From contig CAVTHO010000003.1 of NCBI GenBank assembly GCA_963734545.1, positions 352,001 through 416,000 on the forward strand: a stretch of DNA of 64,000 nt. The letters are read 5' to 3'. The notes beneath the pieces were generated by a model. It saw only the letters and a list, made by a program, of their open reading frames with translations, was not told the DNA's origin and made no database searches. A program made the position numbers and the translations under genes. This DNA comes from an uncultured Spirochaetota bacterium (GTDB lineage Bacteria; Spirochaetota; Spirochaetia; SZUA-6; Fen-1364). This document shows positions 1 through 21,140 of this stretch, one piece after another (the stretch's first letter is position 1; each line of letters begins with the position of its first letter).

Positions 1-756
1 GTGGTCTTCTTCGGGCGGTTCGACTACCGGGTCAAGGCCGCGGCGGTGCTGCGCACGGATGACCTGGTCAACCTCACGGCCCCCTTCGACGGCCACCTGG
101 AAAAGGTCCTGGTCCGGGTCGGAGACGCGGTGTCCGAGGGCCAGGAGCTCGTGAGCCTGGACCGGACCGACCTGCTGCTGCGTGAGGCGGAGCTCGTGGC
201 GGAGAAAACCCGCTACGAGCGGGAGTTCGAAAAGGCACAGGGGTCGGGCGCCCTCGCGGACATGCGGATCACGACGGCCCTCAGGGACCAGGCCGCGGCG
301 AGGCTGGAGCTCGCCCGCTACCAGCTGGATCGCGCGGTCATCCGCGCGCTCTTCTCAGGGGTCATCGTGGAGGGCGACCTGTTCGAGAAGCTCGGGTCGC
401 CCGTTCGCCAGGGAGATCTGCTCCTGAAGCTCGGGCGCATGGAACGGCTGTACGCGGAGCTGGAAGTGAACGAAGCGGACATCCACGAGATCACCGGTGG
501 GCTGAAGGGTGAGATCGCCCTTGCCAGCAGGCCGCAGGAACGCTTCGCCGCGCGGGTGACCCGGGTGGAGCCCGCGGCGGTGGCCAAGGAGAAGAAGAAC
601 GTATTCGTGGTGAAGGCGGCCCTCACCGGTGATCGCCTGGACTGGTGGAGGCCGGGCATGAGCGGGGTCGCGCGGCTGGGGGTCGGCAAGCGCAGCCTGG
701 CCTGGATCCTCACCCATCGGACCCTCGATTTCCTCCGGCTGCGGCTCTGGTGGTAG
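1..756 (+). CDS. HlyD/RND-type membrane fusion (periplasmic adaptor) protein, 5' truncated by the window
   Basis: Lipoyl-like APFDGHLEKVLVRVGDAVSEGQELV, coiled-coil hairpin, second half-lipoyl ALFSGVIV..G..V..G, C-terminal WRPGMSG; stop tag 754-756. Confidence 0.85.
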   Translation: MVFFGRFDYRVKAAAVLRTDDLVNLTAPFDGHLEKVLVRVGDAVSEGQELVSLDRTDLLLREAELVAEKTRYEREFEKAQGSGALADMRITTALRDQAAARLELARYQLDRAVIRALFSGVIVEGDLFEKLGSPVRQGDLLLKLGRMERLYAELEVNEADIHEITGGLKGEIALASRPQERFAARVTRVEPAAVAKEKKNVFVVKAALTGDRLDWWRPGMSGVARLGVGKRSLAWILTHRTLDFLRLRLWW

Positions 757-768
757 GGACGAGGCCGG

Positions 769-2925
769 ATGGTCGAGGAAAGCCGGATCTTTCACGAGTC
801 GTGGTACCGCATCGCCAACCAGCGCGTCAGCCTGTCCGCGGCGGTGCGCGTGCGGCGGCAGCTCTTCCGCGGCTCCCGCTGGTACGTGCTCTCGGATCCC
901 TTCAACGGACAATTCTACCGGCTCCGGCCCCAGGCCTATGATTTCATCGCGAGGCTCAGCGCCCGGCGCACCGTGGAAGAGGTGTGGCGCGAGGCGATGG
1001 AGCGGGACCCTGACAACACCCCCGGCCAGGAGGACGTGATCCAGCTCCTGGCCCAGCTCTACCACGCCAACCTGCTCCGCTACGAGCTGCCGGTGGACAG
1101 CGAGAAGCTCTTCGACCGCTACAAGGAACGCAGGCAGAAGGTCACCCGGTCCACCCTGCTGAACATCATGTTCGTTCGCATCCCTCTCCTGGACCCGGAT
1201 GCCTTCCTGCAGCGTCTTCTGCCGTTTGTCCGGGTGCTGATGAATCCCGTGGGGCTCATCATCTGGATTGCCATGGTTGTCTGGGGGATCGCTGCCGCGG
1301 CCGGAAATTCAGCCGCCCTCGGCTCCCAGACCCAGGGCGTCCTCTCCCTCTCCAACCTGCCTCTCCTCTACGCGGGGCTCGTCCTGATCAAGACCCTGCA
1401 CGAGTTCGGGCACGCCTTTGCCGTGCGGCGTTTCGGCGGCGAGGTGCATGTCATGGGAGTCATGTTCCTCATCTTCAGCCCCCTTCCCTACATAGACGCC
1501 ACGGCGGCCTGGGCCTTCCGGAGCAAGGCAAAGCGGGTCCTCGTGGGAGCGGCGGGCATGATCGTCGAGGTGTTCGTCGCCGCCTGCGCGGCGGTCGTGT
1601 GGGCGAACACCGGCCCGGGCGCGCTGCACGCACTTGCGTACAACATGATCTTCGTCGCCTCGGTTTCCACCATTGTCTTCAACATCAACCCGCTCCTGCG
1701 ATACGACGGCTACTACATCCTCTCCGACCTCTTCGACATCCCCAACCTCCACAGCCAGGCCACCCAGCATCTCCGGCACCTGGTGGAGCGCTACGCATTC
1801 GGCGACAAGAAGTCCCGCAGCCCCGCCGCCTCGCCGGTGGAGGCCTTCTGGCTCACCCTCTTCGGCGTGCTGAGCGGGATCTACCGGTTTGTCGTGTTCG
1901 GCGGCATCCTCCTGTTCCTCGCGGACCGCTTCCTCCTGGCCGGCATCATCATGGCCGCCGTCTGCGGCGTCTCGTGGGTGATTGTCCCGCTCCTGCGTCT
2001 CGTGCGCTATCTTGCCATCGACAAGAAGCTGGAGCGGAGACGGCTGCGCGCGGTGTCCGTTTGCGCGGGGGCCGTGGCCGTGATCGCGGCGTTTCTCCTC
2101 CTCTGTCCGTTCCCGAACAGCTTCAAGAGCCCCGGCGTCCTGAAGGCGCGGGACTCGGAAATCGTCATCAACCGGGTGGGCGGGGAAGTGCGGGAGGTCC
2201 TCGCCGCCTCGGGCTCGAGGGTGAAGGCGGGCGACAGCCTCGTGCGCATGGAAAACAGGGAGCTGGAGTTCAGGATCCGGGAGCTGGAGGCCAAGCTGGC
2301 GGAGGTGAACGCCGTGCGGCAGCGCGCGCTGCAGGAGCGCCGCGCGGACGTGAAACCGGTGGAGGGCGTCATCGAGTCCATCACCAAACAGCTTTTCCGG
2401 CTCTACGGGGATCGGGCCGCGCTGCTCCTGACGGCCCGTATCCCCGGGGTATGGGTGGCGCCGCGCGTGAACGAGCTGGTCGATTCGTGGATTCCCCGCG
2501 GCATGCCGGTAGGGGAAATCGTCGACGATGAGTCCTTTTCCTTTTCGGCCGTGGTGTCCCAGCGTGATGTCTCCCGCGTCTTCTCCGGAGAGGTGCGGAG
2601 CGCGGATGTGCGTATTGCGGGCCGGTCCGATCGGACCATTCCGACGGTGGGCTCGATCCGGATCCCGATGGAGAGGACGGCGCTGCCGTCCGCTGCGCTC
2701 GGTCTGGGCGGGGGAGGGGAGGTGGTGACCAACCTCATGGATCCCAGCGGCACGCGCGCCGCCCAGTCCTTCTATGAGGTGCGGCTGGAGATCGTGAAGG
2801 ATCCTTCGCTCGCCGTCTTCCACGGACAGTCCGGCCGGGCAAGGTTCCGGCTCCCGCCGGAGCCGCTCCTGCGCCAGGGCATCCGCAGCCTGCAGCAGCT
2901 CTTCCAGGAGCGGTACCAGCTGTGA
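769..2925 (+). CDS. Site-2 (M50) intramembrane metalloprotease with PqqD/RRE-like N-terminal domain and HlyD-like C-terminal domain
   Basis: HEFGH zinc motif, NINPLLRYDG (NxxPxxxxDG), several TM segments; N-terminal WYVLSDP..FYRL...TVEEVW...QLLAQL is PqqD-like; C-terminal lipoyl plus coiled-coil. Confidence 0.85.
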   Translation: MVEESRIFHESWYRIANQRVSLSAAVRVRRQLFRGSRWYVLSDPFNGQFYRLRPQAYDFIARLSARRTVEEVWREAMERDPDNTPGQEDVIQLLAQLYHANLLRYELPVDSEKLFDRYKERRQKVTRSTLLNIMFVRIPLLDPDAFLQRLLPFVRVLMNPVGLIIWIAMVVWGIAAAAGNSAALGSQTQGVLSLSNLPLLYAGLVLIKTLHEFGHAFAVRRFGGEVHVMGVMFLIFSPLPYIDATAAWAFRSKAKRVLVGAAGMIVEVFVAACAAVVWANTGPGALHALAYNMIFVASVSTIVFNINPLLRYDGYYILSDLFDIPNLHSQATQHLRHLVERYAFGDKKSRSPAASPVEAFWLTLFGVLSGIYRFVVFGGILLFLADRFLLAGIIMAAVCGVSWVIVPLLRLVRYLAIDKKLERRRLRAVSVCAGAVAVIAAFLLLCPFPNSFKSPGVLKARDSEIVINRVGGEVREVLAASGSRVKAGDSLVRMENRELEFRIRELEAKLAEVNAVRQRALQERRADVKPVEGVIESITKQLFRLYGDRAALLLTARIPGVWVAPRVNELVDSWIPRGMPVGEIVDDESFSFSAVVSQRDVSRVFSGEVRSADVRIAGRSDRTIPTVGSIRIPMERTALPSAALGLGGGGEVVTNLMDPSGTRAAQSFYEVRLEIVKDPSLAVFHGQSGRARFRLPPEPLLRQGIRSLQQLFQERYQL

Positions 2926-4907
2926 GCACCTTGACCAGGGACTACTACCGCACCTTCATAAGGAAACCCGAGCCGCTCCTGTCGGGTCTGGACGCACCGC
3001 TGCACTCAGCCGCGGGCGCGGTCACCAGCATCGGCAGCGAATCCGAGCTCCTCGAGCAGGCCGGGCGCATCGATGCCAGGGCTGCGGAGTGGAGCGACAG
3101 GTCCGACGGCAGGCTGGCGAGCGGGCTGCAGGACCTGCGGGACGCGTTCAAAAGGCGCGGCAGGGGCTTTGAGCTCCTCATTCCCGACGCCCTGGCCGCA
3201 ATCCGCGAGGCCGCAACGCGCAAAGTCGGCCTTCGTCCCTACACGGTACAGCTCGCCGGTGCCCTCGCGCTTTACCGGGGCTACATCGTGGAAATGGCCA
3301 CCGGTGAGGGAAAGACGCTGACCGCGGCCCTGGCCATGGTGCTCCATGGCTGGAGCGGGCTTCCCTGTCATGTCGTCACGGTCAACGATTATCTTGCCGA
3401 GCGGGACGCCACCTGGATGGGGACCCTGTACCGGTTCTGCGGGGTGAGCGTGGGTTTCGTCACCGGCGAGATGGACCCTGCCGGCCGCAGGAAGGGCTAT
3501 TCCGCCGACGTCACCTACACCACGAGCAAGGAGATCGTCGCCGACTTCCTCAGGGACAGGCTCTGGCTCGGTGATCTGCAGAAGGTGGAGCGCCGGCAGA
3601 TCGCCTCCCTCCTGGGCAGGCGGTCCCGCATCGAGGAAGGGCTGGTGATGCGGGGCATCCACACGGCCATCGTGGACGAGGCGGACAATGTTCTCATCGA
3701 CGAGGCGGTCACCCCTCTCATCATCTCCCGCGCGGGACCGAACACGCTGTTCGTCGACGCCTGCGGGGCGGCGCACGGCATTGCGACGAGCCTTGAGCCG
3801 GGCAGGGACTATCTTGTGAACCACAGGCAGAAGGAGATCGAGTTCGATGACTCGATGCGGGAGCGCATCGTGGACCGGATTCGCGCCCGGCCCGGCACAT
3901 TCGGCGGCGCGGCGGGGAACCTCGAGCTCGTTCATCAGGCCCTTTCGGCGCGGGAGTTCTTCAGAAACGACGGGGAGTACGTGATCATCGACGGGAAGGT
4001 GGTCATCGTGGACGAGTTCACCGGCCGCCAGATGCCCCAGCGGCAGTGGCGGGGCGGACTGCACCAGCTCGTCGAGCTGAAGGAAGGGCTCGCCGCCACA
4101 CCGCCGAGCGAGACACTGGCCCGGCTCAGCTTTCAGCGCTTCTTCCGGTTCTTCGGCAGGCTCTCCGGCATGACCGGCACGGCGCGCGAGGCGGCCCAGG
4201 AGCTCTGGGACATCTATCAGCTCAACGTGGTACGGATCCCGGAAAACAGGCCCTGCCGGCGCATCGAGTTCCCCCAGGTGGCATTCGCGCGGGCCGCCGA
4301 CCGCTGGCAGGCGGTTCTTGCGGAGATACTTTCCCAGCACGCAACCGGGCGGCCGGTCCTGGTGGGCACCCGCAGCGTGAAATCCAGCGAGCACCTCTCC
4401 TCCCTGTTGAGCGGGGCCGGGCTGTCCCACCAGGTCCTCAACGCGGTGCGTCACCGGGAAGAGGCGGCCATCGTGGCGCGCGCGGGAGAACGGGGTGCCG
4501 TCACCATCGCCACGAACATGGCCGGCAGGGGGACAGACATTCGACTCCCCGAAGGTGTCACCGGGCTGGGGGGGCTGCACGTGATCGCGACCGAGTGCCA
4601 CGAGTCCCACAGGATCGACCGCCAGCTCTTCGGGCGCTGCGCGCGGCAGGGCGACCCGGGGAGCGCCCGCGCCTACGTCAGCATGGAAGACGATCTCATG
4701 GTCCGGTTCCTGCCGGATGTGGCGCGCAGGGCAATCAGGGCGCAGCTCGATCGGGCGGTGCCCGGTTCCGTCTGGATGGCGCGTCAGGCGGTTGCGTGGG
4801 CGCAGCGCACTGCCCAGCGGGACGCCTTCGAGAGGCGGAGGTCCGTGCTCAAGATGGACACCTGGCTCGATGATTCGCTTTCCTTCGCGCCGCGCGACGT
4901 ATCGTGA
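2922..4907 (+). CDS. Secondary SecA-like DEAD ATPase (661 aa) lacking the C-terminal scaffold, wing and zinc-finger regions
   Basis: EMATGEGKT, HVVTVNDYLAERD, IVDEADNVLIDEA, GMTGTA, TNMAGRGTDI, RIDRQLFGRCARQGDPG; GTGA overlap with upstream gene. Confidence 0.9.
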   Translation: MSTLTRDYYRTFIRKPEPLLSGLDAPLHSAAGAVTSIGSESELLEQAGRIDARAAEWSDRSDGRLASGLQDLRDAFKRRGRGFELLIPDALAAIREAATRKVGLRPYTVQLAGALALYRGYIVEMATGEGKTLTAALAMVLHGWSGLPCHVVTVNDYLAERDATWMGTLYRFCGVSVGFVTGEMDPAGRRKGYSADVTYTTSKEIVADFLRDRLWLGDLQKVERRQIASLLGRRSRIEEGLVMRGIHTAIVDEADNVLIDEAVTPLIISRAGPNTLFVDACGAAHGIATSLEPGRDYLVNHRQKEIEFDDSMRERIVDRIRARPGTFGGAAGNLELVHQALSAREFFRNDGEYVIIDGKVVIVDEFTGRQMPQRQWRGGLHQLVELKEGLAATPPSETLARLSFQRFFRFFGRLSGMTGTAREAAQELWDIYQLNVVRIPENRPCRRIEFPQVAFARAADRWQAVLAEILSQHATGRPVLVGTRSVKSSEHLSSLLSGAGLSHQVLNAVRHREEAAIVARAGERGAVTIATNMAGRGTDIRLPEGVTGLGGLHVIATECHESHRIDRQLFGRCARQGDPGSARAYVSMEDDLMVRFLPDVARRAIRAQLDRAVPGSVWMARQAVAWAQRTAQRDAFERRRSVLKMDTWLDDSLSFAPRDVS

Positions 4908-4970
4908 AAAGGACAACAGTATCGCGCCTCCGTCGAAGGGAGGGAGCGATCAGGAACAGGAGGACCTGCA

Positions 4971-5537
4971 ATGGGTAGATCGGGTATGGCACGGGCAGCG
5001 GCATTCATCATGGTCTTTGCGGCGGCGTGCGGTCTGGAGGCACAGGAGGCGACGCCCCGGACCCTGCTGTTGTTCGGCCCCCGACTGGGGATTTCCGCGG
5101 TTATCCAGGACCCGGGTGATTTCGACGACAACATGCAGTCCCTGCTGCATGACTCGAGCAGGAGCTATTTCCCGGTCTACAGCGAAATGGGGGTCCAGGC
5201 GCAGCAGCTTTTTCCCCTGGGGGGAACCAGGAGCTACCTCACCTTCCAGCAGACGCTCCTGCTGGGAGGCTTGGACCAGGGCATGCCCCTTCCGAGCGCG
5301 TATATGACACTCGGTTATCGGATGGCATTCGGGCTCGAATTCGGTCTCGGCCCCTATGTCACTGTTGCCTCGCCGGGCGGCTCCCCGGGTTTTGCCTTCT
5401 CGATGGTCTATGTAGTCGGGTGGACTTTCGTCATGCCTGGATTCCAGCTGCCGATCACCCTCACGTTCGTTCCCCTCCCCAGCTATGTGAATCCGCAAAT
5501 CTCGGTCCTGGCCGGGCTCAGCTTCGGGACGCTGTAA
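4971..5537 (+). CDS. Hypothetical exported protein, possibly a small outer-membrane beta-barrel
   Basis: RBS ggagg at ~4960; signal-peptide-like N-terminus; alternating hydrophobic beta-strand pattern ending ISVLAGLSF. Confidence 0.6.
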   Translation: MGRSGMARAAAFIMVFAAACGLEAQEATPRTLLLFGPRLGISAVIQDPGDFDDNMQSLLHDSSRSYFPVYSEMGVQAQQLFPLGGTRSYLTFQQTLLLGGLDQGMPLPSAYMTLGYRMAFGLEFGLGPYVTVASPGGSPGFAFSMVYVVGWTFVMPGFQLPITLTFVPLPSYVNPQISVLAGLSFGTL

Positions 5538-5559
5538 GGGCGAAACCTGAAAATAATTC

Positions 5560-5588
5560 TTGACAGCCATGGGATCATCATTTAAGAT
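5560..5588 (+). promoter_or_regulatory. sigma70-type promoter of the giant protein gene
   Basis: TTGACA (5560-5565), 17 nt, TAAGAT (5583-5588), AT-rich tract immediately upstream. Confidence 0.7.
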
Positions 5589-5614
5589 CCGACGCAATTG
5601 AGCTCGCCAAGTGA

Positions 5615-8600
5615 ATGAAAATGGGGATTGATAAGAAGAAGTTCCAGCTCGAACCCCTCGAATCCAGACTCCTGCTCTCCGCCAATGGAATCTTGGACAC
5701 CGTTGCCGTGCCGTCGAGCATCGTCGGCGCTGACGTGGTCGTGGAAGTGCTCGGGGCCGGAGAACAGATCACCGCGGCAAATCATGTCGGCTCAATGTAT
5801 GCGCCGGAGGGAAATCTGCCGGATCTCCTGGCAGCCAATTCCCCGGCACTGACGTCCGCGGCACCGGCCGCCGTGGCCATGACCCCTGTGGATGGCGTGT
5901 CTCCTGCACCCGCGGAAACAGGCACCACCAGCGTCGTGGTCCAGGCTGAGGCCGCTGGACAGACACTGACCGGGTCCGTAACGGAATCGCCCGCAGGGCC
6001 CTCCGCTTTCCAGGCGCCGGATCAACAGACAAAAACTGACGAGCTTGTTGCTACTCTTCACGGCTCAGAGCCCCCGCCTGTTGGCGTCCAGAACATTCAT
6101 CTCGTTGCCGCGCAACCCGTCACAGCCCCGTCGGGCCTGGTGATCAACAGTGGAGACACGTTGTCCGGCAATGGCGCCATCACGGGAAACCTGCTCAACC
6201 TGGGCACGCTCAGTCCGGGCAATTCTCCGGGGATTGTGAACATCACCGGAGATACGGTGCTGGATCCCTCCGGCAGCCTGCTCGTCGAGATCGGCGGGCT
6301 CACGCCGGGACCGGGGAGCCCGAACATCAACGACGGCTACGATCAGGTGAACGTGTCCGGCGCTGCCACCCTGGGCGGGACCCTCCAGATCAGTCTTCTC
6401 GACGGTTACTTACCCCAGGTCGGGGATTCCTTCACGATCATGACCTATGGATCCGCCACCGGAGCCTTCAATTCGGTGAATGGGCTCGTCATCGGGGACG
6501 GCCTGGTCTTCAAGCTGGAGCAGGGTGCCACCGAGCTGCGCCTGGTTGTCTCGAATGACATCATGGACGTCATCGACGCCGTGTTCAGCGGGCACGCGGG
6601 CAGTTTCACCCAGACGGTCACTCCCGGGGATATCCAGCTCGGCGGGGTCCTCGGCATTCAGTCCCCTTCCCTGACCTTCAACTTTGCCTACAGCAGCGGG
6701 TCCTGGTCCGGCTCCATCAGCCTGACGGCGAGCGGAGCCTCCTTCCAGATCGGTGACGCCGTGAGCGCAACGATTGCCGACACGAACTCCGACGGCATCG
6801 CTCTCACGGGCACGTACTCCTTGAGCATCGGATCGCCGCTCAGCGGAACTTTCAGTCTGACGGCGGACAAGTTCAGCTTGAGCATACCTTCCCTGCTGAC
6901 GGCGGATGCCACCGGTGTCACGCTGGGCTACAATCCCAACGGCCTGCCGGAGCAGGAGCTGGTCAATCTGGATCATCTCTCCGTGGCCATTCTTCCGCTG
7001 GATGACACAATCGTCACCGTTAACAATCTGTCCATCCGCGCAAATGGCTTCTCTCTCACCGACGCAGAGGTGACCAAGTCTTCGGTGACCCTCGGCTCGG
7101 TCGTCTCCATTCAGACCCTCACGCTCACGTTCAAAGATGTCAAATACTCCACGACCGGCGGCCTTCAGGGAACATTCGGTGTAAGCGCGGCTACGGTGAG
7201 CATGTTCCCCGGGTATGACGCTTTCACGTCCACCATAACCGGGTTCAGCGGCTCCTACACACTGGGCACCAGGGCCCTCAGCCTGGGCGCGGCCACCGTC
7301 GCCTTCGAGATCGGAAACTTGCTGAAGCTCACCGCGACGGACGTGGGCTTCGACCTGGATCCTTTCAAGGTGACAATCGGGGGCATCGAGGTAAGCTCGC
7401 CGCGTTTCCAGGCGTTCAACCTCACTGCCTCCGCAACCGGGCTCACCATCACCTCCACCGGGTTCTCAGTGGCAAGCGCCACCCTCAGCACCACGAGCTC
7501 CGTGAGCATCGGTCCGGTTTTGACGGTTTCCGGCCTGAGCATCACCGCGACCGATTTTGGCTACGAGGTCGGATCCGGGGCAAAGTTCAATGGCACGCTG
7601 TCGGTCACCGTGGGCTCCGCAGCGTTGTTCCCGACAAAGCCGGTGAATGCTTCGGCTACAAATATCGTCGTGACGGTGAATCTTGCTCACGAGCATGAAG
7701 GGGAGCTTTCCTTCTCGGCCGCCACGGTGAGCTTTACCCTGGGCAGCATATTCGAAGCATCGGCCTCCTCGGTATCGATCAATCCCACTCCGGGACCGGG
7801 GCAGCTCGCCTTCAGCTTCGCGCGGATCACCGCGGGCCTTCCCCAATTCGGGATTTCCGGCACCCTGGGAGATACCGGTACGGATCCCTCTCCTCCCGCG
7901 AGCTTCGGCTTCGACGTGAACGGCAAGATCCAGGTCCTCGCAGGCGCGAGCTTCGGTTTCTCCTTTGACACCGCCACCGCTGATGCGGCCCAGAGCCTCA
8001 AGTGGCCGAGCTGGCTTCCCGTGCAGATTTCCGAGCTGTCCATCGCCTGGGGCAATATCACGGAAAATCCTGCGGATTTTGTCCTGACGTTCTCAGCCTC
8101 GGTCAATCTGAGCCAGATCAAGGGCGCGCCCCTGAGCCTGTCCGGATCAGTGACCGATATCGTCATCGACGTCGGAAAACTCATAGCCCTCGAGTTCCCC
8201 ATCGTCTCCATAGGCGTTGTCAGCGTGTCCGTGACAGGGGATCTTTTCGGCGGCACAATCAGTGCCACTCTCGTAGCCGGCGTTTTCAGGTATGACAGCG
8301 AAGGATACGAAGTAGACAGCAGCAACCAGCGGGTCGGACTCCCGGACGGCACCCCCACTGACCCGGTGGGAGCCATTTCCAGCGCATTCTACGGCGGCAT
8401 CAAGGGCGGCTTCTCCATGAAAGGCCTTTCAGGATTCGAGCTCAGCATCGGGCTGTCAGAGTTCGGGCCGCTCTCCGTCTACGTGACCGTGTCGCTGCCC
8501 ACCGGCATCCTTCTCGAGCCCAATTCCGGCCTCACCATCAACAACCTTCGCGGCGGGGTGGATTTCAACATGACCCTGCCGAACATTCCGAATCCTGACA

Positions 8601-11600
8601 CGGGCACCGCGGTGGACGCGCTGCAGCTTCGCAGGGACGAGTTCAACTCTCCGGAGGGGATGACGGAGGTCCAGTGGAAGGCCAGCCTCCGGCGCGCGGT
8701 CGGCCAGCAGATCGTAACGATCATTGCCGCGCGCTCGCAGGGGCTCCCTGATCCCAATTTCTGGAACGTGTTCGCCTACCCCATGATCATCCGGGCCGGC
8801 GCGGACCTGTACAGCCAGTACACCTCTGACAACGTCTTCAAGGCCAAAATCGACCTTGCCCTGGACACCCAGGGAAGGATCCTGATCAGCGGCGAGGCCG
8901 TGTTCGCCAACAGCCTGAGCCTCGGCCTCCGGCTGTACGCCAACCTGAGTCCCGTGATCGACGGTTCGGTCAACAAGGGCGCAAAGGTGACCATTCTGTT
9001 CCTGTCAGATTTCCCCTCCGGCGCAGGCGTCACTCCCATATTCAGCGTGTACGGCAGGGCCGATTTCTTCTTCAGCAGGACCGATGGCACGCCGGTCACT
9101 GCCACGAACAAGGCCGACCAGTTCGAGATCTTCCTCGCCGGCGCTGCGACCATGAACGTGCTGGACCAGTTCTCGGTCACGTACAGCGGCAGCCTCGGCC
9201 TGGCTTTCTCGACCACCGGCTTCGTCATGAAAGTCAATGCCCAGGCCAATGTGTCGTATCTCGGAAACATCGGCACCGCCGCCGGGGAGCTTCACGTCCA
9301 GAAAGTCTCGGGAAGCTCGCTGGAGATCTGGGGCGCCTTCCTCATGACCGCGGATCTCTCTGCCATGGAGCAGTCAGGTATCTACGCTTCCGGGCTGGTG
9401 TTCTTCGCGCTGAACACGACAAGCGCGGCCAAATCTGTCACCCTGACCCTGCCGGCTACTCCGCCTGCCACGCCGACCGCCTATCCCCTGGACCTCAAGC
9501 CGACATCCTTCGGTCTCCTGATAGACGGCAAGGCTGTCATCAAGCTCCCGAAAAGCTCACCCAGTGACCCGGGCCTCTTTTCCATGACCGCGGTCCTGGT
9601 CGTGGACATCGATACGTCAGGCCTGCGGATATTTGCGGAGGGATCCATGACCCTCGGGTCCCCGGGAGTGGACCCGCTCCTGTCGTTCTCGTTCAACGGC
9701 CTGCTGGTGACGAACAGCCAGGGCATCGCGGCCCGGCTGACGCTCATCTATACGAACAACGCAATTCCTGGAGTCGGGCTGAATGCCCGGTTCCACCTCG
9801 TGTTGAATACAACGGGCCTGGCTGTTCAGTACCAGATCCCCACGCTTCCGACCGGTGATCAGATTCCGTTTGTCACGGGACCGAACCCTGCAGACCCGAC
9901 CGGTCCGGAGATACTGCTGGAGGGCCCCGGCCGCACCATCTCGATTCCCGGCGGACCGCCTGTCCTCGGGGACGGCATCGCGAACTGGGTTCCTACGGCG
10001 GAGAATGCCGGAAAACCATACGCGGTGATATTCGGCGGCGGCTCCCTGAGCCTGCTGGGCACCTTCACGCTGGACGGCGCGCTCCTCCTTATCCTTTCTC
10101 CCGCTGAGCTCGCCATGAGCGTGGACATGAGCTTGAGCCTGGCGGATCTGGGCACGGTGAATGCCACGGGCACCCTGCTGATCGACTCCAGCGGCGTGGC
10201 CGGCGCTCTGTCCATCGGAGTCCAGGCGGGAGTATTCAAGTCCGGCCCCCAGTTCAGCCTGTCCGGTGTGGCATTCTTCATGGTCAATACGCGCGCCAGC
10301 CCTGTGCCTGCCCTCCATCTTCCGGCAGGTCCTTACGCGCAGGTCGGAATAACAGGCACCCTGATCCTCGGCCTGGCATCCGGCACGAGCTTCACCATGG
10401 TGGGCAACTTCGTGCTCACCACCACTGCCACGGAAACAGCGGTCAGCGCCTCCTCCACGCTGACCGCTGAGCTGGGCGGGGTCACCCTCTTCTCCATGCA
10501 GGCGGACGGCGCCCTGGTAATGAGCGCGAATGGGATCGCGGCCAGAATCGTGCTGGGCTCTGGAGGCTCGAGCGGACTGAGTGGAGACGGCTTTACGTTC
10601 ACCGGATACTTCACCCTGGAGGTGAACACGACCACGCAGGCGGTCGCAGAGATCAACGCGGTGACTGTGAATCTGGCTCCAGGGCCGTACGTGCGCGTGC
10701 GCATCGGCGGGGACCCGGCGGTGTCGGGCTCCACGGCCACGCTTGCCCTCTCTGAGGCCGGGGACAACAGCATTGGGATGAACGGGAGGTTCGACCTGGA
10801 GATGAGCCCTGCCGGGCTCGCGGTGACAGCCAGCGCCACGCTCTTCATGAAGCTGGGAGGAGCTACCCTGTTCTCCCTGAATGCAAATGGCGCCCTCCTT
10901 GTCACAGCGGACGGCATTGCCGCGAAGCTCTCCCTCGGAACCGGGCAGCTCGAGCACTGCTGCCGCCAACGGCTTCTCGTTCGCAGGGTATTTCACCCTC
11001 GAGCTGAACACAGGCATCCAGCGGGTTACGAAGATCAACGACGTCGTCGTGAACCTTGAACCCGGACCGTATGTGCGGCTGACAATCGGCGGTGACCCCG
11101 CCGTTGCAGGCTCCGAGGCCGTGCTGCAGCTCATTCTCGGGGGAGCCAGCGGCTTCCGCCTGGAAGGCTCCTTTGTTCTGGCGCTCAGCTCCTCCGGTAT
11201 CGCGGTCAGCGCCACCACGTCCCTGGTGGCGGTAGTAGCGGGCCAGCCCCTTCTGACTGTCGACGCAAGCGGCGCCCTTCTGATCAGCAGCGCAGGCATC
11301 GCGGCGAAAATAAGCTTGAGCGCGGGGTCGATCAGCGGCTCGTCCTATGAGTTCACAGCCGCCGCAGGCGCGGCATTCACCCTTTCGATCAATACCACCG
11401 CAGCGGCCGTGGACATCATCAACAACGTGACAGTGGACCTGCCGGCAGGTCCGTATGCATATCTGGCCGTGAGCGGCGCGGTGAGTCTTCCTGCCGCGGC
11501 AGGGCTCTCGCTTTCCGGCGTATTCTCCATCTCGGCCAGCCCGGCCGGACTGGAGATCTTTGCAGACGCCTCGCTCGCCTTTGGACCGAGCATCGCTGCG

Positions 11601-14600
11601 TTCAATTTCCATGCGCTGGGTGTCCTGATCATCAGCGGGAGCGGCGTGGCAGGTGACTTCGATGTCAGCATGTCGGTGGGATCGAGTCTCTCCTCTGTCA
11701 TGACCGCCGCAAACGTCTCCGCGCGGGTCATATTCAATACGACGGGAGCCGACCAGAGCGTGACCATTCCGGCGGCATTCCTGCCGCTGCTGAGCCAGCA
11801 GACAAAGAATCGCCTCGTGGACAATGGCTCCGGCCTCAAGATGTACGTGGTTTCCGGCGGTGCACCGCTCGTGGACGGAACCACGGCCAGCCCCGGCACC
11901 TATATTGTCGCCCGTTTCGATGCCACCCTCACCCTCGGCGGCTTCTGGTCGCTCGCGGGGCACTTCCGGCTGGCTGCCGGCCCGGGCTTCTTCGAGCTGT
12001 CTGCCAGCGCCTCCCTGAACCTCGGCTTCCTCGGGAGCCTCAATGCCACGGGGTTCGTGCAGATAACGAGCGCGGGAATCGCGGGAAGGTTCTCAGTCAG
12101 CGGCACCATGCAGACAACCGGATTCAGTCTTACCGCCGCCGCTTTCTTCGAGGTCAACACCACCGGCTCTGCCGTGAACACCGGCACCGCCGTCATCCAG
12201 CCCGGGTACCGGGTTTCCTTCACCGGCACGGCAAGCTTCCTCAATTTCTGCCAGGCCACGGCCACGGGATACGTGAGCATAGATGGCACCGGCCTGCAGC
12301 TCTACTTCGACGGGACCTTCACGATCGGGCCTCTCTCCTTCGGTGCATCGGCGTATGTCGGGGTCTTCTCTACAGGCATCGTTCTGGATGCCCATGTCTT
12401 CTTCAAGACGAACATCCTGTCCCTCTTCGATTTCGACTTCGACGGCAGGGTGCAGATCAACACGACAGGCGCGGACCTCGCCGGATTCAACGGTCCGAGC
12501 GGGTGGGTGAGCTTTGTGGACGCGAATGGAAATCCCGTCACCATCCCCCACAACTCCTTCTATCTGGACGTGCAGGCAAAACTGAACGTGCTCTCGGTCA
12601 TTCAGCTCAGCGGCAGGCTCATCGTTTCCGTGGAAAATGGCGGCTGGTCCATCACGATTCCCGCAAGCAACAAGCTGAGCGCGAGCCTGTTCGGCATGAT
12701 GACCATCTACGGCTACGGCTTCCTCAACTCCCAGGGTCATTTCGATCTGCATTTCGGCGGCGGAGTCGGTCTTCCCTACTACGGGGCCAGCACCGGCATC
12801 CAGGGAGATATCTTCTTCGACGCCTCGTTCCTCGGCACCACGTTCCACTTTGGCGCGGGCGGCAGCTTCAGCGCAAAATGCGCGGACGTGAACCTGATCG
12901 GAGTATCGGTGAGCCTGTCCGCCGATGGGACCCTCGGCCAGTCCATGAGCCTCGATCTGACCGTGAGCGGGACCGGGACTGTTCTGGAGACCGTCATAAA
13001 GATCGTGCGGATGACCCTGGAGGCGGCGCAGGACATCGGCGCCGCCATCGTCAACTTCCTGGGCTCGCTCGGATGCGAGATCCTGAGCTGGTTCGGCGCC
13101 TGCGACCAGTGGGTGGACGTCGAGATGCCCAGCACGGAGTGGGTCACCAAGCTCTTCAGCTTCACCATCCACCTGGCAACCATCCAGCTCCCCAGCAGCC
13201 TCGCCAACAGCGCGCCCCCGCCGCCGAACCTGGCGGACCTTTCCGGCGGTGTCCTGACCTTGAATGTCGGCTCCCGGGCAGCTTTGCGGGGCGTCCAGCC
13301 GGGGAATCTGGATGAAAACTTCTCCATCTCCCACGTGTCAGGGACTGCCGGGAATGAAACGCTGATCGTCACCGCCTTCGGGGTCTCGGAGACTTACACC
13401 GGTGTTTCTTCGATCTCCGCGGACTTCGGAAACGGTAATGACATATTCGTGGCTGCTCCCGGGGTCCTGGTGAGCGCCACGATCTACGGCGGAGCCGGCA
13501 ACGACACCCTCGTTTATTCCGGATCCGGGTCCGGCGCGCTTTACGGCGGGTCGGGGGATGACGTGCTCACCCTCGGCAGCGGTGTCGCGGCCGGCTCCGC
13601 CTACGGCGGGGACGGGAACGACCAGCTCACGGCAGAGATCACCGGCCCGGTCGGGGTGTCCCTGTATGGCGAGGCGGGCAACGATACTCTGGCCGGAGGC
13701 GCGGGAAGCGACATTCTCAGCGGCGGAGACGGGAACGACATCCTTCAGGGTCGGGGCGGAGCGGATGCCATCACGGGCGGCGCAGGAAACGACACGCTCA
13801 CCGAGTACCTGGCCACCCTGGGAATGGGAGCGTCATTTGACGGCGGCTCGGGCATGGACCAGATCAAGCTGCTGGGAAGCTCGGGGGCCAATACCTTCAA
13901 GGCCGCGGCCGAAGGGACCACCCAGGTCCGGCTGAGCTCCTGTTCCGGCAGCACGGAGACGGCATACCTCCTCGGGTCGACCGTTGAAAGCCTGATCATG
14001 AACGGCGAGGGCGGCGCCGATCGGTTCGTATTTGTCGGGAACCTCCGGCAGGCGGGGGTCACGACCGTGACGGCAGACCTGAATGGGGACCCGTCCACGG
14101 ACACGGTAGAGATCTCTCTGAGCGATCAGGACGATGCCCTGAGGCTTTCGGACTACTCGGCGACACCGAACAGCCTGAGCGCGAGCTGGTCCGGCCACAG
14201 CGTGTACAACCTGCTCTCGGTGAACTCGGCGGGCGGGGACACCCTGACCGTGAAGGGCGGAGCAGGCAGCGATCTTCTCTGCGGCGCCACGGTCGCCACT
14301 TCGCCGTTCAGCCAGATTGCTTTCTACGGCGAAGCGGGGGACGACATCCTCTGCGGCACCGTGCAGAACGATCTTCTCGACGGCGGGCTCGGCAACGACA
14401 GGATCACCGGCATGGCCGGGACGGACATCTTCCAGGATGCCGGCGGCTACAACACGCTGGTAGAGGTATTCGACGCCGACCTTGGCCTCTTCGGCAATCT
14501 CTTCATCGTGGGGACCGCGCAGCTTTCCGGCAGCGGAGAGAGCCGCGTCCTGGCCGGCTTCACCGGCGCCACGGTGGAAGACATTGCCGGCGTATTCTCC

Positions 14601-17600
14601 GAGGTCCAGCTCGTTGCGGGACAGAGCCGGAACATCTTTGCCATAGGCGCCGCGGCAGGGATTGTGAACGCGAATGGCTCGGCAAGGACCGCCACCCCGT
14701 GGAACGGATTGGCCAGGCTCAATGGCGTCGGCGGAGACGATGAGTACCTGGTGGAGCTTTCCGGCCTGAGTGGGGCCACGGTGCAGGTCGTCGAATACTC
14801 GCTGATCCAGAACGGCGTGGTGGTGCAGGCGGCAGGCGGCAACGATGTCCTGACTTTCAAGGGCACCGGCGTCTCCGATACGGGAAGCGTTTCGGTGAGC
14901 GGAGGCCAGACCACCTTCTCCCTGCAGCCTGACGGCCTGGCCGTGAGCCACGTGGTCAGCACTCCGGACATCGAATCGAATCTGTTGTATCTCCGGGCCG
15001 GTGACGACGTGCTCGCCGTGAACAGCATCAACGTGGCGACTCTCGTGGCTGCCGGTGACGGCAACGACAGGATCGACGTACGGTCAATCCCCGTTGCCTT
15101 GGCGGTAAATACGGGAGCGGGGGATGACACGGTCAACGTGGGAAGCGCTGCCCCCGGGGTCGGCGGGACAGTGGACGGGATCGTCGGACAGCTCGTGGTG
15201 GAGGCCGACGGCGGCGACAATGACGTGCTGAACGTGGACGATACGGGAGACCTGACGGACAACACTGGGTACCTGACCTCCACGGACCTGACAGGGCTGG
15301 GGATGGGCGCGGGCATCCACTACGCGGGCTTCGAGTACCTGAACATCGGGCTGGGCGCGGGAAATGACACTCTGAACGTGCAGACCATCGGCGCGTACAC
15401 CACGGTGAGCGCGGGAGCGGGGGATGACACGGTCAACGTGGGAAGCGTTGCCCCCGCGAGTCGGCGGGACAGTGGACGGGATCGTCGGACAGCTCGTGGT
15501 GGAGGCCGACGGCGGCGACAATGACGTGCTGAACGTGGACGATACGGGAGACCTGACGGACAACACTGGGTACCTGACCTCCACGGACCTGACAGGGCTG
15601 GGGATGGGCGCGGGCATCCATTACGCGGGCTTCGAGTACCTGAACATCGGGCTGGGCGCGGGAAATGACACGCTGAACGTGCAGACCATCGGCGCGTACA
15701 CCACGGTGAGCGCGGGAGCGGGGGATGACACGGTCAACGTGGGAAGCGTTGCCCCCGGGGTCGGCGGGACAGTGGACGGGATCGTCGGACAGCTCGTGGT
15801 GGAGGCCGACGGCGGCGACAATGACGTGCTGAACGTGGACGATACGGGAGACCTGACGGACAACACTGGGTACCTGACCTCCACGGACCTGACAGGGCTG
15901 GGGATGGGCGCGGGCATCCATTACGCGGGCTTCGAGTACCTGAACATCGGGCTGGGCGCGGGAAATGACACCTTCACGATAGCGGACACGCATGGCGGAG
16001 AGACCACCCTGCACACGAACGCCGGCAATGACACGGTAAACGTGCTCGCGACCGGCGGGCTGACCAACGTATATGCGGACGCCGGGGATGACGTGGTGAA
16101 TGTGTCCTCCGATGCCCCCGCGGACAGCGGCACCCTGGACAACATCCTTGGCCTGCTCAACATAGATTGCGGCACGGGCATCAATACCCTGAACGTGAGC
16201 GACGAGGCGGACGGGACCGGCGATTCGGTGATCATCACCAGCAACTCGATCGTTGGTTTCTCGCCTGCTCCCATCACTTACACGGCCTCGGGAGGGACCT
16301 TCGGTGGAGGAATCAACATCGAAGGCGGCTTCGGCGGGAACTCCATCGAGATACAGTCCACGAATGACAGCCCAGGCACCACGACGACCCTCTGGTCGGG
16401 TGACGGCAGTGACTACGTTCTCGTGACTGAAACAGATCCCCTGTCGCTGGTCATCCACGGCGAGGCCGGCAATGACGTGATCTTCGCGGCAGTGGTGATG
16501 ACCGACCTTGTCATCACGGGAGACGGGGGAGACGACTTCATTACCAGCGGCTCGGGGAATGACTGGATCACCGGCAACGACGGTGACGATGTGATCCTCG
16601 CCGCCCTCGGAAATGACACGGTGTCGGGCGGCGCGGGCAACGATATCATCACCGGCGACCAGGGCATCGCAACCTGGGCCGAAGGGAAGGTCGTGCGGAT
16701 CGAGACGTCCAACCCCGGGATGGGCGGTGATGATCTTATTGCGGGAGACCTTGGCGACGACATTACCCTGGCCGGGTGCGGCGCCGACACGGTTGACGCT
16801 GGGGACGGCGAAAACGTCGTGCTCGGCGACAACGGTCTTGTACTCATCGAAGCCGGAACCGCCGTCAGGATCGAGAGCACGGACCCCGCGTACGGCGGTC
16901 AGGATTTCATTCATGCCGGCAGCGGGAATGACATCCTCTTCGGCGGGACTGCAAATGACACGATCTTCGCCGGGGCCGGAGACGATATCGCGCTGGGAGA
17001 CAGCGGACTGTTCACTCGCTCCCCGCAGGCTGCTTCGGTTCTGACTTTCAGCGCCTATGCCGGCGGGAACGTCCTGTGCACCAATACCGGCGCGAACGAT
17101 GGCGGCGGCAATGACGAGATCCACGGCGGTCCGGGCGACGACCTCATCATGGGTGAGCAGGGAGACGACCGGCTCTTTGGTGACCAGGGAGACGACGACA
17201 TCATTGGCGGCCACAATGTCCGGTTCGGGGCGGATGGCAGCGACTTCATAGACGGCGGTGACGGCGCGGATGTCGCGCTGGGAGACAATGGCACGATATC
17301 CAGACGCCCCGTGAGCGGCCAGGCATGGGTCTGGCAGAGATATCCGGCACCGTTTGCCGATGTCATACGGGACGTCGTGCTCTTTGACGATGCGGATGGT
17401 GTTGCCGGGCAATGACGAGATGCTCGGCGGGACGGGAAACGACACTCTCCATGGCCAGCGCGGCAGCGACGTTCTGAAGGGCGGCGCGGGTGACGATGAG
17501 CTGGTGGGCGGACTCGGAGATGACAGCCTTGCCGGAGACGATGGAAGCGACATCCTGGCGGGAGATACCGGAATCATTTTCCGGGCCTGGAACCCGGACG

Positions 17601-19510
17601 GCTCTCCCAGAGTGGATCCCAACGGCTCGTGGCACAAGGATGTGCTGCTGACCGATGTCGGGATCATCACCGGCGTGTATTACCTGGACAACATATCCTT
17701 CAAGGATCTGAGCCCGGCCGTGCTCGGGGACCTCCTGAATGCCGATCTGGTGCTCCTGATGGGCGCCTATAATCCTGATGGCACGCCTTACCTCGTGAAG
17801 GACGGCTGCCGCAAGGAATGGCAGACATGCCTGCTGCTCGTGAAGCTGCTGCCTGACGGAAATGACACGCTGGACGGCGGCGCGGGAGACGATTCACTGC
17901 TTGGCGGGAGAGGCGATGACGCCCTGGCGGGCGGGGACGGCAACGACCTCCTGGCCGGGGACGCAGGAAATGATCTTCTTGACGGAGGCGCCGGAGATGA
18001 CGTCCTGGTCGGCGACGAAGCGACGAGGATGACTTCAGGTGACGCGCTTCCGGACGTGCTCCATGGCCTGCACCTCATCACTGGAGGAGCGGGATACGCT
18101 GCCCCGGCGAATATCGTCATGACGGATTTGGGGGCAACGATAATCCCGGTCGTATCGGTGATTCCCGGCCGCGCAACGAGCATCCTGAGCGGCGCGTGGG
18201 GCTATCTCGGGAACGCGAACCGCCTGGTCAGGACCGACGGCACGTGGCTCCTGCCCTTTGCTTCGATCGTCACGGACGTGGCTCATCACATGGGCCTGGT
18301 TGCCGGAAACGACCTTCTCATCGGCGGTGACGGAGACGACGTGCTGGTGGGTGACACGCTGCTCGTCTTCGAGCCGACGGTAATCGTGACCGACCCTCTC
18401 CTTGATTCCGCCGGCCTCCTGCTGCGGGACCTCTCATACGCAACTGGGAAGCTGAACGAGTTCGTGTGCAGGCTCGATCATGCCATCGACGAGGCCACCG
18501 AGCATCGCTGCGTGAGCCACGTGGACGTGATCGTCGACCAGACATACCGGATCGGCTGTGACGAGCTGGACGGCGGGCCGGGGAATGACCTCCTGGCCGG
18601 GGACGACATGGCGGTGCTCTCGCCGTCGTTCACCGTGCCGCTCGGTCTGGTGAGGGATCTTGAACGCCTCCTCGACCAGGCGGAAGGGCTCGGACAGGGG
18701 TTTGACCGGGCGCTCAGCCAGATCGACGATGCGGCGCTCGATCTGCGCGAGGTGCTCGTGTCGGTGAAGTGCGGCAAGAAGACCGTGCTGAACCTCGAGA
18801 GGCACGTGGACCAGATTTTCGCAGGCAATGACTCCATCACGGGCGGCGAGGGAGACGACGTGATCGTCGGTGACCGCTGGACCGTCATGGCGCCCCGGCT
18901 CACGGTGGTTGCAGGCCCGGCGTTCTGCCACCATCACGACCACGGCTGTGACGGATGGGACAGTGATGGCGGGGCGTGCGGCAATGCCCTGGCGGACGGC
19001 TGGATCACGGGCAACGACACGCTGGACGGCGGCGCAGGAAACGATGTTGTATTCGGGGATACCGCGGCGTTCGCCGCCCCTGTGCTGGCCGTCGATCCCG
19101 GCGTCAGCAAGTGCGGCTTCAGGTCCGTGCGGGACGCCGCCGAGGATACTCTGGGGGACCTGATCGAAATGGGGCTGGGCCTCAGCAGCCAGGGAACCTG
19201 GTTCCATCTCGGTGACTGTGACGGCGGATTGTACCTGAGCCGCAGCAACGGGGCGTCGTGCGGCCATTCCTGTGACAAAGGCAAGACAGACAGCGATATC
19301 ATCCAGGGCGGAGACGGGGATGACCTGCTGTTCGGCCAGGGCGGGGATGACACTCTCCTGGGAGGCGCGGGAAACGACTGGCTCATCGGCGGTGACGGTC
19401 ATGACCACCTCGATGGCGGTCCGGGCTGCGACAAGATCAGCCACGGGTGGGACTGCTGCAGGGACTTGAGGAGCAGGGTCTTTGCCCGGCTCTCTCCGTG
19501 GACCATCTGA
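5615..19510 (+). CDS. Giant secreted LEPR-XLL-leader / RTX Ca-binding repeat protein (~4,630 aa once three +1 frameshifts at ~10943, ~15458 and ~17407 are corrected)
   Basis: ORFs 5615-11059, 10881-15524, 15424-17415 and 17354-19510 join in successive +1 frames with continuous repeat content; N-terminal KKKFQLEPLESRLLLSA; GTLSPGNSPG motif; beta-rich repeats; many GGxGxD nonapeptides from ~13430 onward. Confidence 0.85.
10200..11500 (+). repeat. Diverged ~120-130-aa protein repeats in the giant protein
   Basis: Recurring L.PGPY / LPAGPY (~10325, 10680, 11060, 11445) and GAL....GIAA(R/K) motifs. Confidence 0.7.
15112..15970 (+). repeat. Near-identical 300-bp tandem repeat (about 2.9 copies, 100-aa unit)
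   Basis: gggatgacacggtcaacgtgggaagc starts at 15121, 15421 and 15722; copy 2 has one extra base. Confidence 0.95.
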
Positions 19511-21050: not shown

Positions 21051-21117
21051 GAGACGCTCCTTCGAGATGTGTATTGGCCGACTGGACGCCCCGGCGAACG
21101 ACGTCCGCGCCCGGCGG

Positions 21118-21137
21118 CCAGAGCGGTACTCCGCACT
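21118..21137. repeat. Intergenic palindromic element
   Basis: Identical 20-mer to 19604-19623; 17-mer core reverse-complemented at 48463-48479. Confidence 0.85.
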
Positions 21138-21140
21138 TCG

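Follow-up and report, generated by a model that had tools for sequence, protein, structure and literature searches.

A SecA-like/M50-HlyD cassette beside a giant LEPR-XLL/RTX gene in a Spirochaetia genome is a candidate TolC-linked, ABC-less machine for LEPR-XLL proteins

We analysed a stretch of 64,000 nucleotides (the window) from an uncultured Spirochaetota bacterium (GenBank assembly GCA_963734545.1, contig CAVTHO010000003.1, positions 352,001 to 416,000), in which a cassette of genes for HlyD-type adaptors, a PqqD-like/M50/HlyD fusion protein (M50-HlyD) and a SecA-like ATPase stands before a giant gene with a LEPR-XLL leader and RTX repeats. The locus rather likely encodes a dedicated, TolC-linked machine without an ATP-binding cassette (ABC) transporter that recognises, processes and most likely exports proteins with LEPR-XLL leaders, and its substrates would be the neighbouring giant RTX protein and three more encoded elsewhere in the genome. 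We advance more tentatively, and with some doubt, the broader reading that such cassettes represent a widespread, unnamed, TolC-dependent one-step exporter without an ABC, resistance-nodulation-division or major facilitator superfamily pump, in which a RiPP recognition element (RRE; RiPP, ribosomally synthesized and post-translationally modified peptide) would read LEPR-XLL, the fused M50 domain would remove it, a wingless SecA paralogue would be the ATP motor and a three-adaptor tunnel would pass cargo of up to tens of thousands of residues. To our knowledge, only a few export routes are known for the largest bacterial proteins. Many giant proteins bear LEPR-XLL, a tag that is annotated but functionally orphan, and its link to this machine yields a hypothesis, open to test, of a secretion route in which both the energiser and the logic of the signal would be new; if the broader reading is true, protein secretion has taken over leader recognition of the RiPP style, with the orphan tag as its sorting signal.

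The gene order is a minus-strand gene for a TolC-type outer membrane efflux protein (OEP), followed on the plus strand by HlyD, GAF-HlyD, M50-HlyD, SecA-like, a small open reading frame (ORF) and the giant LEPR-XLL/RTX gene, and profile searches, alignments and transmembrane prediction found all cassette parts present and intact. The M50-HlyD gene begins 12 nt after the GAF-HlyD gene and the SecA-like start overlaps the M50-HlyD stop by 4 nt, a spacing from which we take the cassette genes to be translationally coupled. A sequence-only reading of the window had described three tightly spaced genes for an HlyD-type adaptor, a PqqD-like/M50/HlyD fusion and a truncated SecA with no ABC transporter in view. 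The spacing, the fusion, the truncation and the lack of an ABC gene in the window and locus were all borne out, and no HlyB-type ABC gene was found in the operon. Its first adaptor is indeed of HlyD type, but the window holds only the tail of a larger GAF-HlyD protein. Extending the contig upstream, as that reading had proposed, revealed the divergent TolC-type gene and a further HlyD adaptor, and a separate canonical secA, which it had asked after, lies on contig C7 of the same genome.

We assessed the co-occurrence of the cassette with LEPR-XLL proteins in 995 genomes from five draws, including kin and three chosen seeds (centres G401-G403, picked for carrying the cassette and LEPR-positive beforehand). 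A match of at least 500 bits to A1, our profile of the M50-HlyD family, was scored as an orthologue and a match to NF012209 over its cut-off as LEPR, both in the same genome samples. The genome under study holds one cassette and four LEPR-XLL genes over cut-off. Among 20 relatives, LEPR was found in 5 of 5 cassette genomes vs 1 of 15 others (19.9 bits, in a 120-aa ORF), the cassette occurring in 3 of the 12 genomes from the same genus and in 2 of the 8 from the same order; 400 other genomes of the phylum contained no cassette and a single weak LEPR match (18.6 bits), with neither in 399. Within Verrucomicrobiota (291 genomes), 23 of 25 cassette genomes were LEPR-positive vs 5 of 266 others, those five matches reaching 18.7-22.2 bits in ORFs of 38-636 aa, and none of 42 genomes with only a paralogous M50-HlyD protein (126-327 bits) had LEPR. 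Planctomycetota (141 genomes) gave 14 of 16 vs 3 of 125; the three exceptions hold A1 matches of 360-417 bits, one of them cut by a contig end, and LEPR was absent from all 103 genomes without any A1 match. Corresponding counts in Gammaproteobacteria (141 genomes) were 6 of 8 vs 5 of 133, two of the five having contig-cut A1 matches and two (G913, G960) none. All five cassette-holding seed genomes, from five phyla, carried LEPR, and NF012209 was over cut-off in none of 14 control genomes.

The association, for which the sequence-only reading had proposed a test, was strong across genomes, and the comparisons support well the proposal that LEPR-XLL proteins and the cassette are a single functional unit whose parts are acquired and lost jointly. 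Patchy spread of cassette and cargo in one spirochaete genus and order, with no cassette found elsewhere in the phylum sample, would fit such joint gain or loss, and the presence in 5 of 20 close relatives but 0 of 400 genomes of the phylum sample is consistent, as are our literature searches, with the earlier remark that no description in spirochaetes was known. In each of four Planctomycetota (G716, G761, G765, G816) there are 8-17 LEPR-XLL ORFs, and many of these are just 300-1800 residues long, so the tag is not confined to giant proteins.

At the level of single loci, we fetched 80 related loci of many phyla from other genomes, in which many of the partner-less loci end at a contig edge. 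A GAF-region match lay just upstream of M50-HlyD in 69 of the 80, the SecA-like gene directly downstream in 60, always with the same truncated length, and TolC was present in 24. An ORF of at least 200 residues with the strict LEPR motif occurred within 10 kb in 18 loci, in 12 of them on the same strand and downstream, which is also the arrangement in the window, and several Verrucomicrobiota have the LEPR start 2.1-2.4 kb past the M50-HlyD end, right behind the SecA-like gene. Strict-motif density was 19 hits in the 1.22 Mb of these loci vs 5 in the 5.14 Mb of the studied genome, where 4 are true LEPR genes.

Prediction of a complex between fusion residues 1-440 (alignment A1) and the 60 N-terminal residues of the giant protein (alignment A2, 19 leaders) gave an ipSAE of 0.64 (runs 0.62, 0.64, 0.64; best of 3 controls 0.00), passing a mark that was attained by 116 of 157 complexes with solved structures and by 2 of 215 mismatched pairs. 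Runs shared at least 48% of contacts, with a partner pLDDT of 41-43. The predicted interface joins leader residues 8-22, which are the LEPR motif, to the last strand (residues 40-59) and the third helix (residues 85-102) of the RRE and, on M50, to residues 208, H211, E212, H215, N305 and R311-D313, the lowest-error pairs linking leader residues 11-15 with fusion residues 48-52. In the model the LEPR motif thus sits in the groove of the RRE-like domain, adjacent to the M50 zinc site, which answers the sequence-only reading's call for structure prediction. The model supports in silico that the RRE of the fusion reads the LEPR leader and that the motif reaches the M50 site, and the leader is predicted to bind in the canonical RRE mode, lying strand-like against helix 3 and the last beta-strand.

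Each part of the fusion could be traced separately. Its N-terminus is PqqD-like (PF05402, E 1.4e-4, 22.6 bits, just below the cut-off of 23.4), and the M50-like core matches NCBIfam daptide_HExxH (NF041824, 'daptide biosynthesis intramembrane metalloprotease', 8.9e-52, 176.5 bits, below the 300 cut-off), YydH/LiaK (NF058609, 'YydH/LiaK epipeptide maturation metalloprotease', 3.6e-9, 36.7 bits, below 225) and Pfam M50 (19.9 bits, below 27.2). Transmembrane segments are predicted for the core that holds the M50 motifs, and the 17 aligned homologues, drawn from several phyla, all share H211, E212 and H215 of HExxH and N305, P308, D313 and G314 of NxxPxxxxDG. The model of residues 1-135 had a pLDDT of 87-94 over residues 11-100 and the strand-and-helix order of an RRE. 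VIA-align matched it to a lasso-peptide B1 RRE with leader (6jx3_B, Z 9.4, rmsd 3.0, 84 of 85 aligned), to TbiB1 with leader (5v1v_A, Z 8.9) and to PqqD (5sxy, Z 8.4), the three alignments spanning rmsd 2.5-3.2 over 84-87 residues. A Z of 9.7 to a domain of GdmN indicates that the fold is not exclusive to RiPP enzymes, and Foldseek returned no match at E<=0.001 for this model, with weak rows only. The fusion resembles RiPP leader machinery in its RRE winged-helix fold, the predicted strand binding of a leader and the HExxH intramembrane core; unlike it, the protein falls below the NF041824 and NF058609 cut-offs, is fused to HlyD and would have cargo that counts hundreds to thousands of residues, where RiPP substrates are short peptides. 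More than 4029 homologues were found, nearly all about 718 aa long and, among the matches listed, 53-60% identical even between phyla, and at least 549 relatives occur in GTDB species-representative genomes. Candidate cultivable carriers of such a locus are Methylobacterium extorquens AM1 (META1p2399-2402, named in PMC4452313), Marinobacter suaedae and Mesorhizobium sp. LjNodule214 (loci L070, L075). The paralogous M50-HlyD family mentioned above (about 126-330 bits to A1, similar length; for example G410:C6:135224-137275, G411 and G415) is common in Verrucomicrobiota and Planctomycetota and may serve a different leader type.

The SecA-like protein comprises nucleotide-binding domain 1 (NBD1), PPXD, NBD2 and the start of the scaffold helix (SecA_DEAD 2.2e-90, PPXD 9e-21, P-loop_SecA 3e-56), its residues 47-649 aligning with residues 23-603 of the ~800 of B. 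subtilis SecA (446 bits). GEGKT, DEAD, NMAGRGTD and GRCARQGDPG, which we take to be the SecA ATPase motifs, are all present. SecA_SW had no match in the protein, the alignment to B. subtilis SecA lacks the wing, two-helix finger and C-terminal tail, and the scores fall below every NCBIfam SecA/SecA2 cut-off (TIGR00963, 578 bits vs 800). With NBD1, PPXD and NBD2 kept and wing, finger and tail gone, the protein should, given what is established for SecA, still bind ATP and unfolded chains and not work with SecY in the usual way. It shares its retained domains and ATPase motifs with canonical SecA and SecA2 (PDB 1m6n, 3dl8, 6sxh and others), and unlike them it ends at about B. subtilis residue 603 and has adaptor genes as neighbours in place of SecY2 or glycosylation genes. 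SecA_DEAD was over cut-off twice in the genome, on C7 in the canonical gene, which also has SecA_SW, and on C3 in the SecA-like gene.

The part of the first adaptor that lies in the window is its C-terminal 251 aa (HlyD_3 2.6e-17, also HlyD_D23 and RND_mfp). The whole protein has a GAF domain (PF01590, 2.5e-10, aa 192-322) that would be cytoplasmic, a single predicted transmembrane segment at aa 354-372 and then the periplasmic HlyD part. With the plain adaptor and the fusion, the cassette contains three HlyD-domain proteins, and an HlyD-type membrane fusion protein (MFP) and a TolC-type outer-membrane factor are both present. Features of the locus and related genes are collected in Table 1.

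Table 1 Features of the locus and of related genes in the same genome (G000; contigs C3, C7, C8 and C10). Positions are those of the window unless another frame of reference is named.
Feature	Position	Strand	Remarks
Window	G000:C3:352001-416000		cassette and giant gene all on + strand
TolC-type protein, 617 aa	divergent from plain HlyD adaptor gene	-	OEP 7.6e-31
Plain HlyD adaptor	L003:9899-10897		upstream of GAF-HlyD gene
GAF-HlyD adaptor, 616 aa	G000:C3:350906-352756; window 1..756	+	start 1.1 kb before window
PqqD-like/M50/HlyD fusion, 718 aa	769..2925	+	RRE aa ~11-105; transmembrane/M50 core aa ~160-446; HlyD aa ~450-718
SecA-like ATPase, 661 aa	2922..4907	+	NBD1, PPXD, NBD2, scaffold-helix start
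Small ORF, 188 aa	4971..5537	+	between SecA-like and giant genes; signal-peptide-like N-terminus
Sigma-70-like promoter match TTGACA-17-TAAGAT	5560..5588	+	27 nt before giant start; 1 site vs 0.3 expected; consensus match only
Giant LEPR-XLL/RTX gene	5615..19510	+	13.9 kb, about 4630 codons if continuous; frames 5615-11059, 10881-15524, 15424-17415, 17354-19510
LEPR-XLL motif KFQLEPLESRLLLSANG	5642..5692, residues 10-26	+	NF012209 23.4 bits (genome) / 18.6 bits (window), cut-off 17
RTX calcium-binding nonapeptide repeats	13473..19415	+	HemolysinCabind 8.7e-15, 6.3e-21, 1.6e-39 in last three frames
Frame shift 1	~10956-10969
Frame shift 2	~15440-15445
Third frame change	within 17354-17415
Other LEPR-XLL giant genes	G000:C10:179586-195126; C8:26002-41352; C10:119000-125555	all -
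Canonical secA, two overlapping frames	G000:C7:220072-224226 (L004 1348-2742 and 3-1634)	-	DEAD and PPXD, then P-loop and SecA_SW

A locus of this kind has been described before. In the accessible portion of their paper, Kamneva, Poudel and Ward (2015, PLoS One, PMC4452313) report a conserved 'secondary SecA_DEAD' locus with Peptidase_M50+HlyD, GAF+HlyD/biotin-lipoyl and HlyD genes, sometimes OEP, and no ABC gene, propose SecA_DEAD as ATPase and M50 as membrane component or possible pore, and call the role of the locus 'completely unknown'. That portion names no substrate and mentions neither LEPR-XLL nor an RRE/PqqD-like domain; it agrees with what the sequence-only reading had stated of secondary SecA_DEAD genes next to adaptors like those of systems for type I secretion (T1SS) and M50 proteases. 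Every feature of the type recurs here (a second SecA_DEAD protein, M50-HlyD, GAF-HlyD, HlyD and OEP, no ABC), and the cassette is a spirochaete case of this described but uncharacterised kind, unlike the loci in the available text of the 2015 paper in belonging to a Spirochaetia metagenome-assembled genome (MAG) and lying beside a likely cargo gene. The 2015 locus has neither cargo nor experiment in the literature searched, and no paper linking LEPR-XLL to a SecA-like/M50/HlyD cassette was found there, subscription journals lying outside the search. Both the link to cargo and the model of how the leader is recognised, on which the value of the present case rests, lend themselves to bench tests.

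Two preprints, each accessible in part, touch on the same elements. Wingless SecA DEAD/preprotein-binding domains have been described inside giant Omnitrophota and actinobacterial proteins, for which self-export was proposed (bioRxiv 10.1101/2023.11.21.568195). The likeness, as far as the accessible text goes, is a scaffold- and wing-less SecA-like module linked to giant proteins; the module there lies inside the giant and its neighbours resemble type II/IV secretion genes, unlike the separate 661-aa protein in an adaptor/M50/TolC cassette found here. Cag_663 and Cag_665 of the 'Chlorochromatium aggregatum' epibiont are giants with an N-terminal 24-aa LEPRxLL domain, encoded beside TolC-like and SapC genes, that are reported to be expressed and transferred out of the cell without known transport signals (bioRxiv 10.64898/2026.03.19.712371); they resemble the present case in being giant LEPR-tagged proteins near a TolC-type gene, and in the available text 'M50' appears 0 times and 'SecA' once.

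Compared with T1SS (HlyB-HlyD-TolC and LapB-LapC-LapE), the locus has HlyD adaptors, a TolC-type factor and a giant RTX cargo without a Sec signal in common. It differs in having a SecA-like ATPase and M50 in place of the ABC protein, three different adaptors vs one, and a conserved cargo signal that is an N-terminal leader, where the T1SS signal is C-terminal and uncleaved. We propose that the cytoplasmic RRE of M50-HlyD would first capture the leader as an added beta-strand, the step for which the complex model gives in-silico support, and that the C-terminal half of the leader (R-L-L-L-S) would then lie at the M50 zinc site and be cut off. The SecA-like ATPase, without the parts for SecY docking and pushing, would hold the unfolded chain and feed it using ATP, and HlyD, GAF-HlyD and M50-HlyD would, to judge by domain families and synteny, form a periplasmic tunnel to the divergent TolC channel. 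Calcium-driven folding of the RTX repeats outside might help to pull the chain, as knowledge of T1SS suggests, and the GAF domain may gate the machine.

Several points weigh against a dedicated exporter. Translocation, leader cleavage, ATPase coupling and export itself are steps that we infer; we know of no M50 domain that acts as a protein conduit or channel, and the inner-membrane conduit is the weak point of the model. About a dozen loci with downstream room have no SecA-like gene, and a LEPR gene lies within 10 kb in only the 18 of 80 loci given above. Six cassette genomes (G686, G574, G849, G851, G865, G990) showed no LEPR match, and G913 (31.1 bits) and G960 (27.3 bits), both Gammaproteobacteria, have a good LEPR match and no A1 match; incomplete MAGs could explain exceptions of both kinds. 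The sampled genomes are kin, so that the counts overstate independence. The complex may pass in part through its likeness to solved RRE-leader complexes, its alignments were supplied by us, and the partner's own fold is uncertain at a pLDDT under 50. The ORF of the giant gene is interrupted in the assembly, the RTX repeats of its product come close to the C-terminus as in T1SS substrates, and an ABC exporter could be missing from an assembly that is 89% complete.

The cassette might serve only to mature or control LEPR-XLL proteins, the RRE-M50 part removing or checking the leader, the adaptors and TolC having another purpose, the SecA-like protein acting as chaperone or unfoldase and the crossing relying on, for example, SecYEG with canonical SecA. 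Such a role would suit an RRE and M50 core that most resemble RiPP leader peptidases (in the daptide_HExxH and YydH/LiaK matches above), a protease family not known to form protein channels and a SecA-like protein without its SecY-engaging parts, and it fits the co-occurrence and the complex model as well as export does. For cytoplasmic maturation, however, three MFP-type adaptors, one of them fused to the protease, and a TolC gene in 24 of 80 loci would be superfluous, the leader has no Sec-type hydrophobic core, and LEPR proteins carry RTX repeats of extracellular type. We regard a role in maturation alone as unlikely.

The giant protein begins with MKMGIDKKKFQLEPLESRLLLSANG, and no Sec-type hydrophobic core was found in its leader. 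Its LEPR-XLL start, which the sequence-only reading had recognised, stands with NF012209 over cut-off, as do the RTX repeats, which fill much of the last 6 kb and end about 30 residues before the stop, followed by a C-terminal tail with several cysteines. The gene is not the single ORF directly behind the SecA-like gene that had been described, for it is read in four overlapping frames and the 188-aa ORF lies before it. A near-consensus promoter match directly before the giant gene suggests that its transcription may be independent of the cassette. Behind each of the other three LEPR genes, too, lie overlapping ORFs of the same strand in other frames, and the giant gene on C10 also has EF-hand and RTX matches.

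These interruptions might be real, the cargo genes of this genome being in decay and the system out of use, and the four frames of the giant gene in the window and the overlapping frames behind the other three LEPR genes, together with a cassette whose ~9.5 kb contains no frame change, so that errors would be unevenly spread, favour that explanation. Three observations count on the other side, beyond the intact cassette. The canonical secA, an essential gene, has the same kind of split, which points to assembly indels; the same-genus orthologue in G707, whose frame stays open for 3267 aa until the contig ends, is colinear with it at an identity of 68-72% to the giant gene, and this coding-level similarity continues across shifts 1 and 2; and shift 2 adjoins a C5 run. 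Since secA shares the defect, the frame changes are probably assembly indel errors, which is the most economical reading, and we judge decay to be quite unlikely; the assembly probably has frame errors in long genes and calls for caution. Among public runs, the best shared 0.28 of words, none reached half and no RNA run was found. Public contigs of four runs on the region were short pieces from related strains, which left bin 10801-11067 uncovered and listed no indel at the three shifts. Runs with related DNA carry the label of a wetland, sediment or soil metagenome, in shares too small for a claim on habitat.

We also searched for an ABC exporter. None of 107 ABC ATPase matches in the genome lies inside the window, and no gene of the 89%-complete assembly passed a T1SS ABC cut-off, the best scores being 389 vs 725 bits for TIGR01846 and 243 vs 510 for TIGR01842. 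On C3 the nearest matches (329.9-331.2 kb and 337.9-339.3 kb, 13-22 kb upstream) cover the ATPase only, in open frames of 251-296 aa, and by eye their neighbours are genes for permeases and binding proteins. Other contigs hold six full-length genes of ABC exporter type. An ABC-exporter query against the 80 related loci gave four weak matches (54-77 bits), all to the ATPase part.

Giant RTX adhesins are classic T1SS cargo. That the giant RTX protein is an ordinary substrate of this type, exported C-terminus first by an HlyB/PrtD-type ABC protein encoded elsewhere or missing, with the cassette serving other cargo such as a small RiPP-like peptide, would agree with repeats that run to about 30 residues from the C-terminus, with the incomplete genome and with the six exporter-type genes, but it is very improbable given that no ABC gene reaches a T1SS cut-off or lies in the window, that ABC-like matches occur at 4 of 80 related loci and are all weak, that the genome-level link of cassette and LEPR-XLL would be left unexplained, and that the C-terminal tail has several cysteines, which are unusual in T1SS cargo.

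Between the SecA-like and giant genes, the frame at 4971-5537 is the conserved one (58% amino acid identity over 168 aa to the same place in the same-genus G707, other frames 32-49%). It had no Pfam match and no match at any of 80 loci of other phyla, and its leads are Atlas clusters of DUF2715, OMP_b-brl and PagL at 0.91-0.92; the product is possibly a small outer-membrane beta-barrel protein. A competing ORF at 4717-5307 had no family match and was dropped in favour of this conserved frame, and neither DUF3467 nor a SapC-like family matched the ORFs of this gap at E<=1.

The locus stops 3' of the giant gene, where an aminoacyl-tRNA synthetase gene and fliG follow on the minus strand. An ORF at 19752-22040 (762 aa, no family) appears to be antisense, the minus strand there encoding the class II aminoacyl-tRNA synthetase and FliG, and was placed outside the system. 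Five taxon-named relatives of this FliG, at 72-79% identity, are all 'Spirochaetia bacterium' MAGs, and the closest taxon-named homologue of the M50-HlyD protein, among the matches listed, is from a 'Spirochaetales bacterium' (59%). Genes that, by eye from the translations, encode a GGDEF-type membrane protein and two phenylacetate-CoA-ligase-like proteins lie upstream of the TolC gene, at G000:C3:342442-347284 (L003 2442-7284, minus strand).

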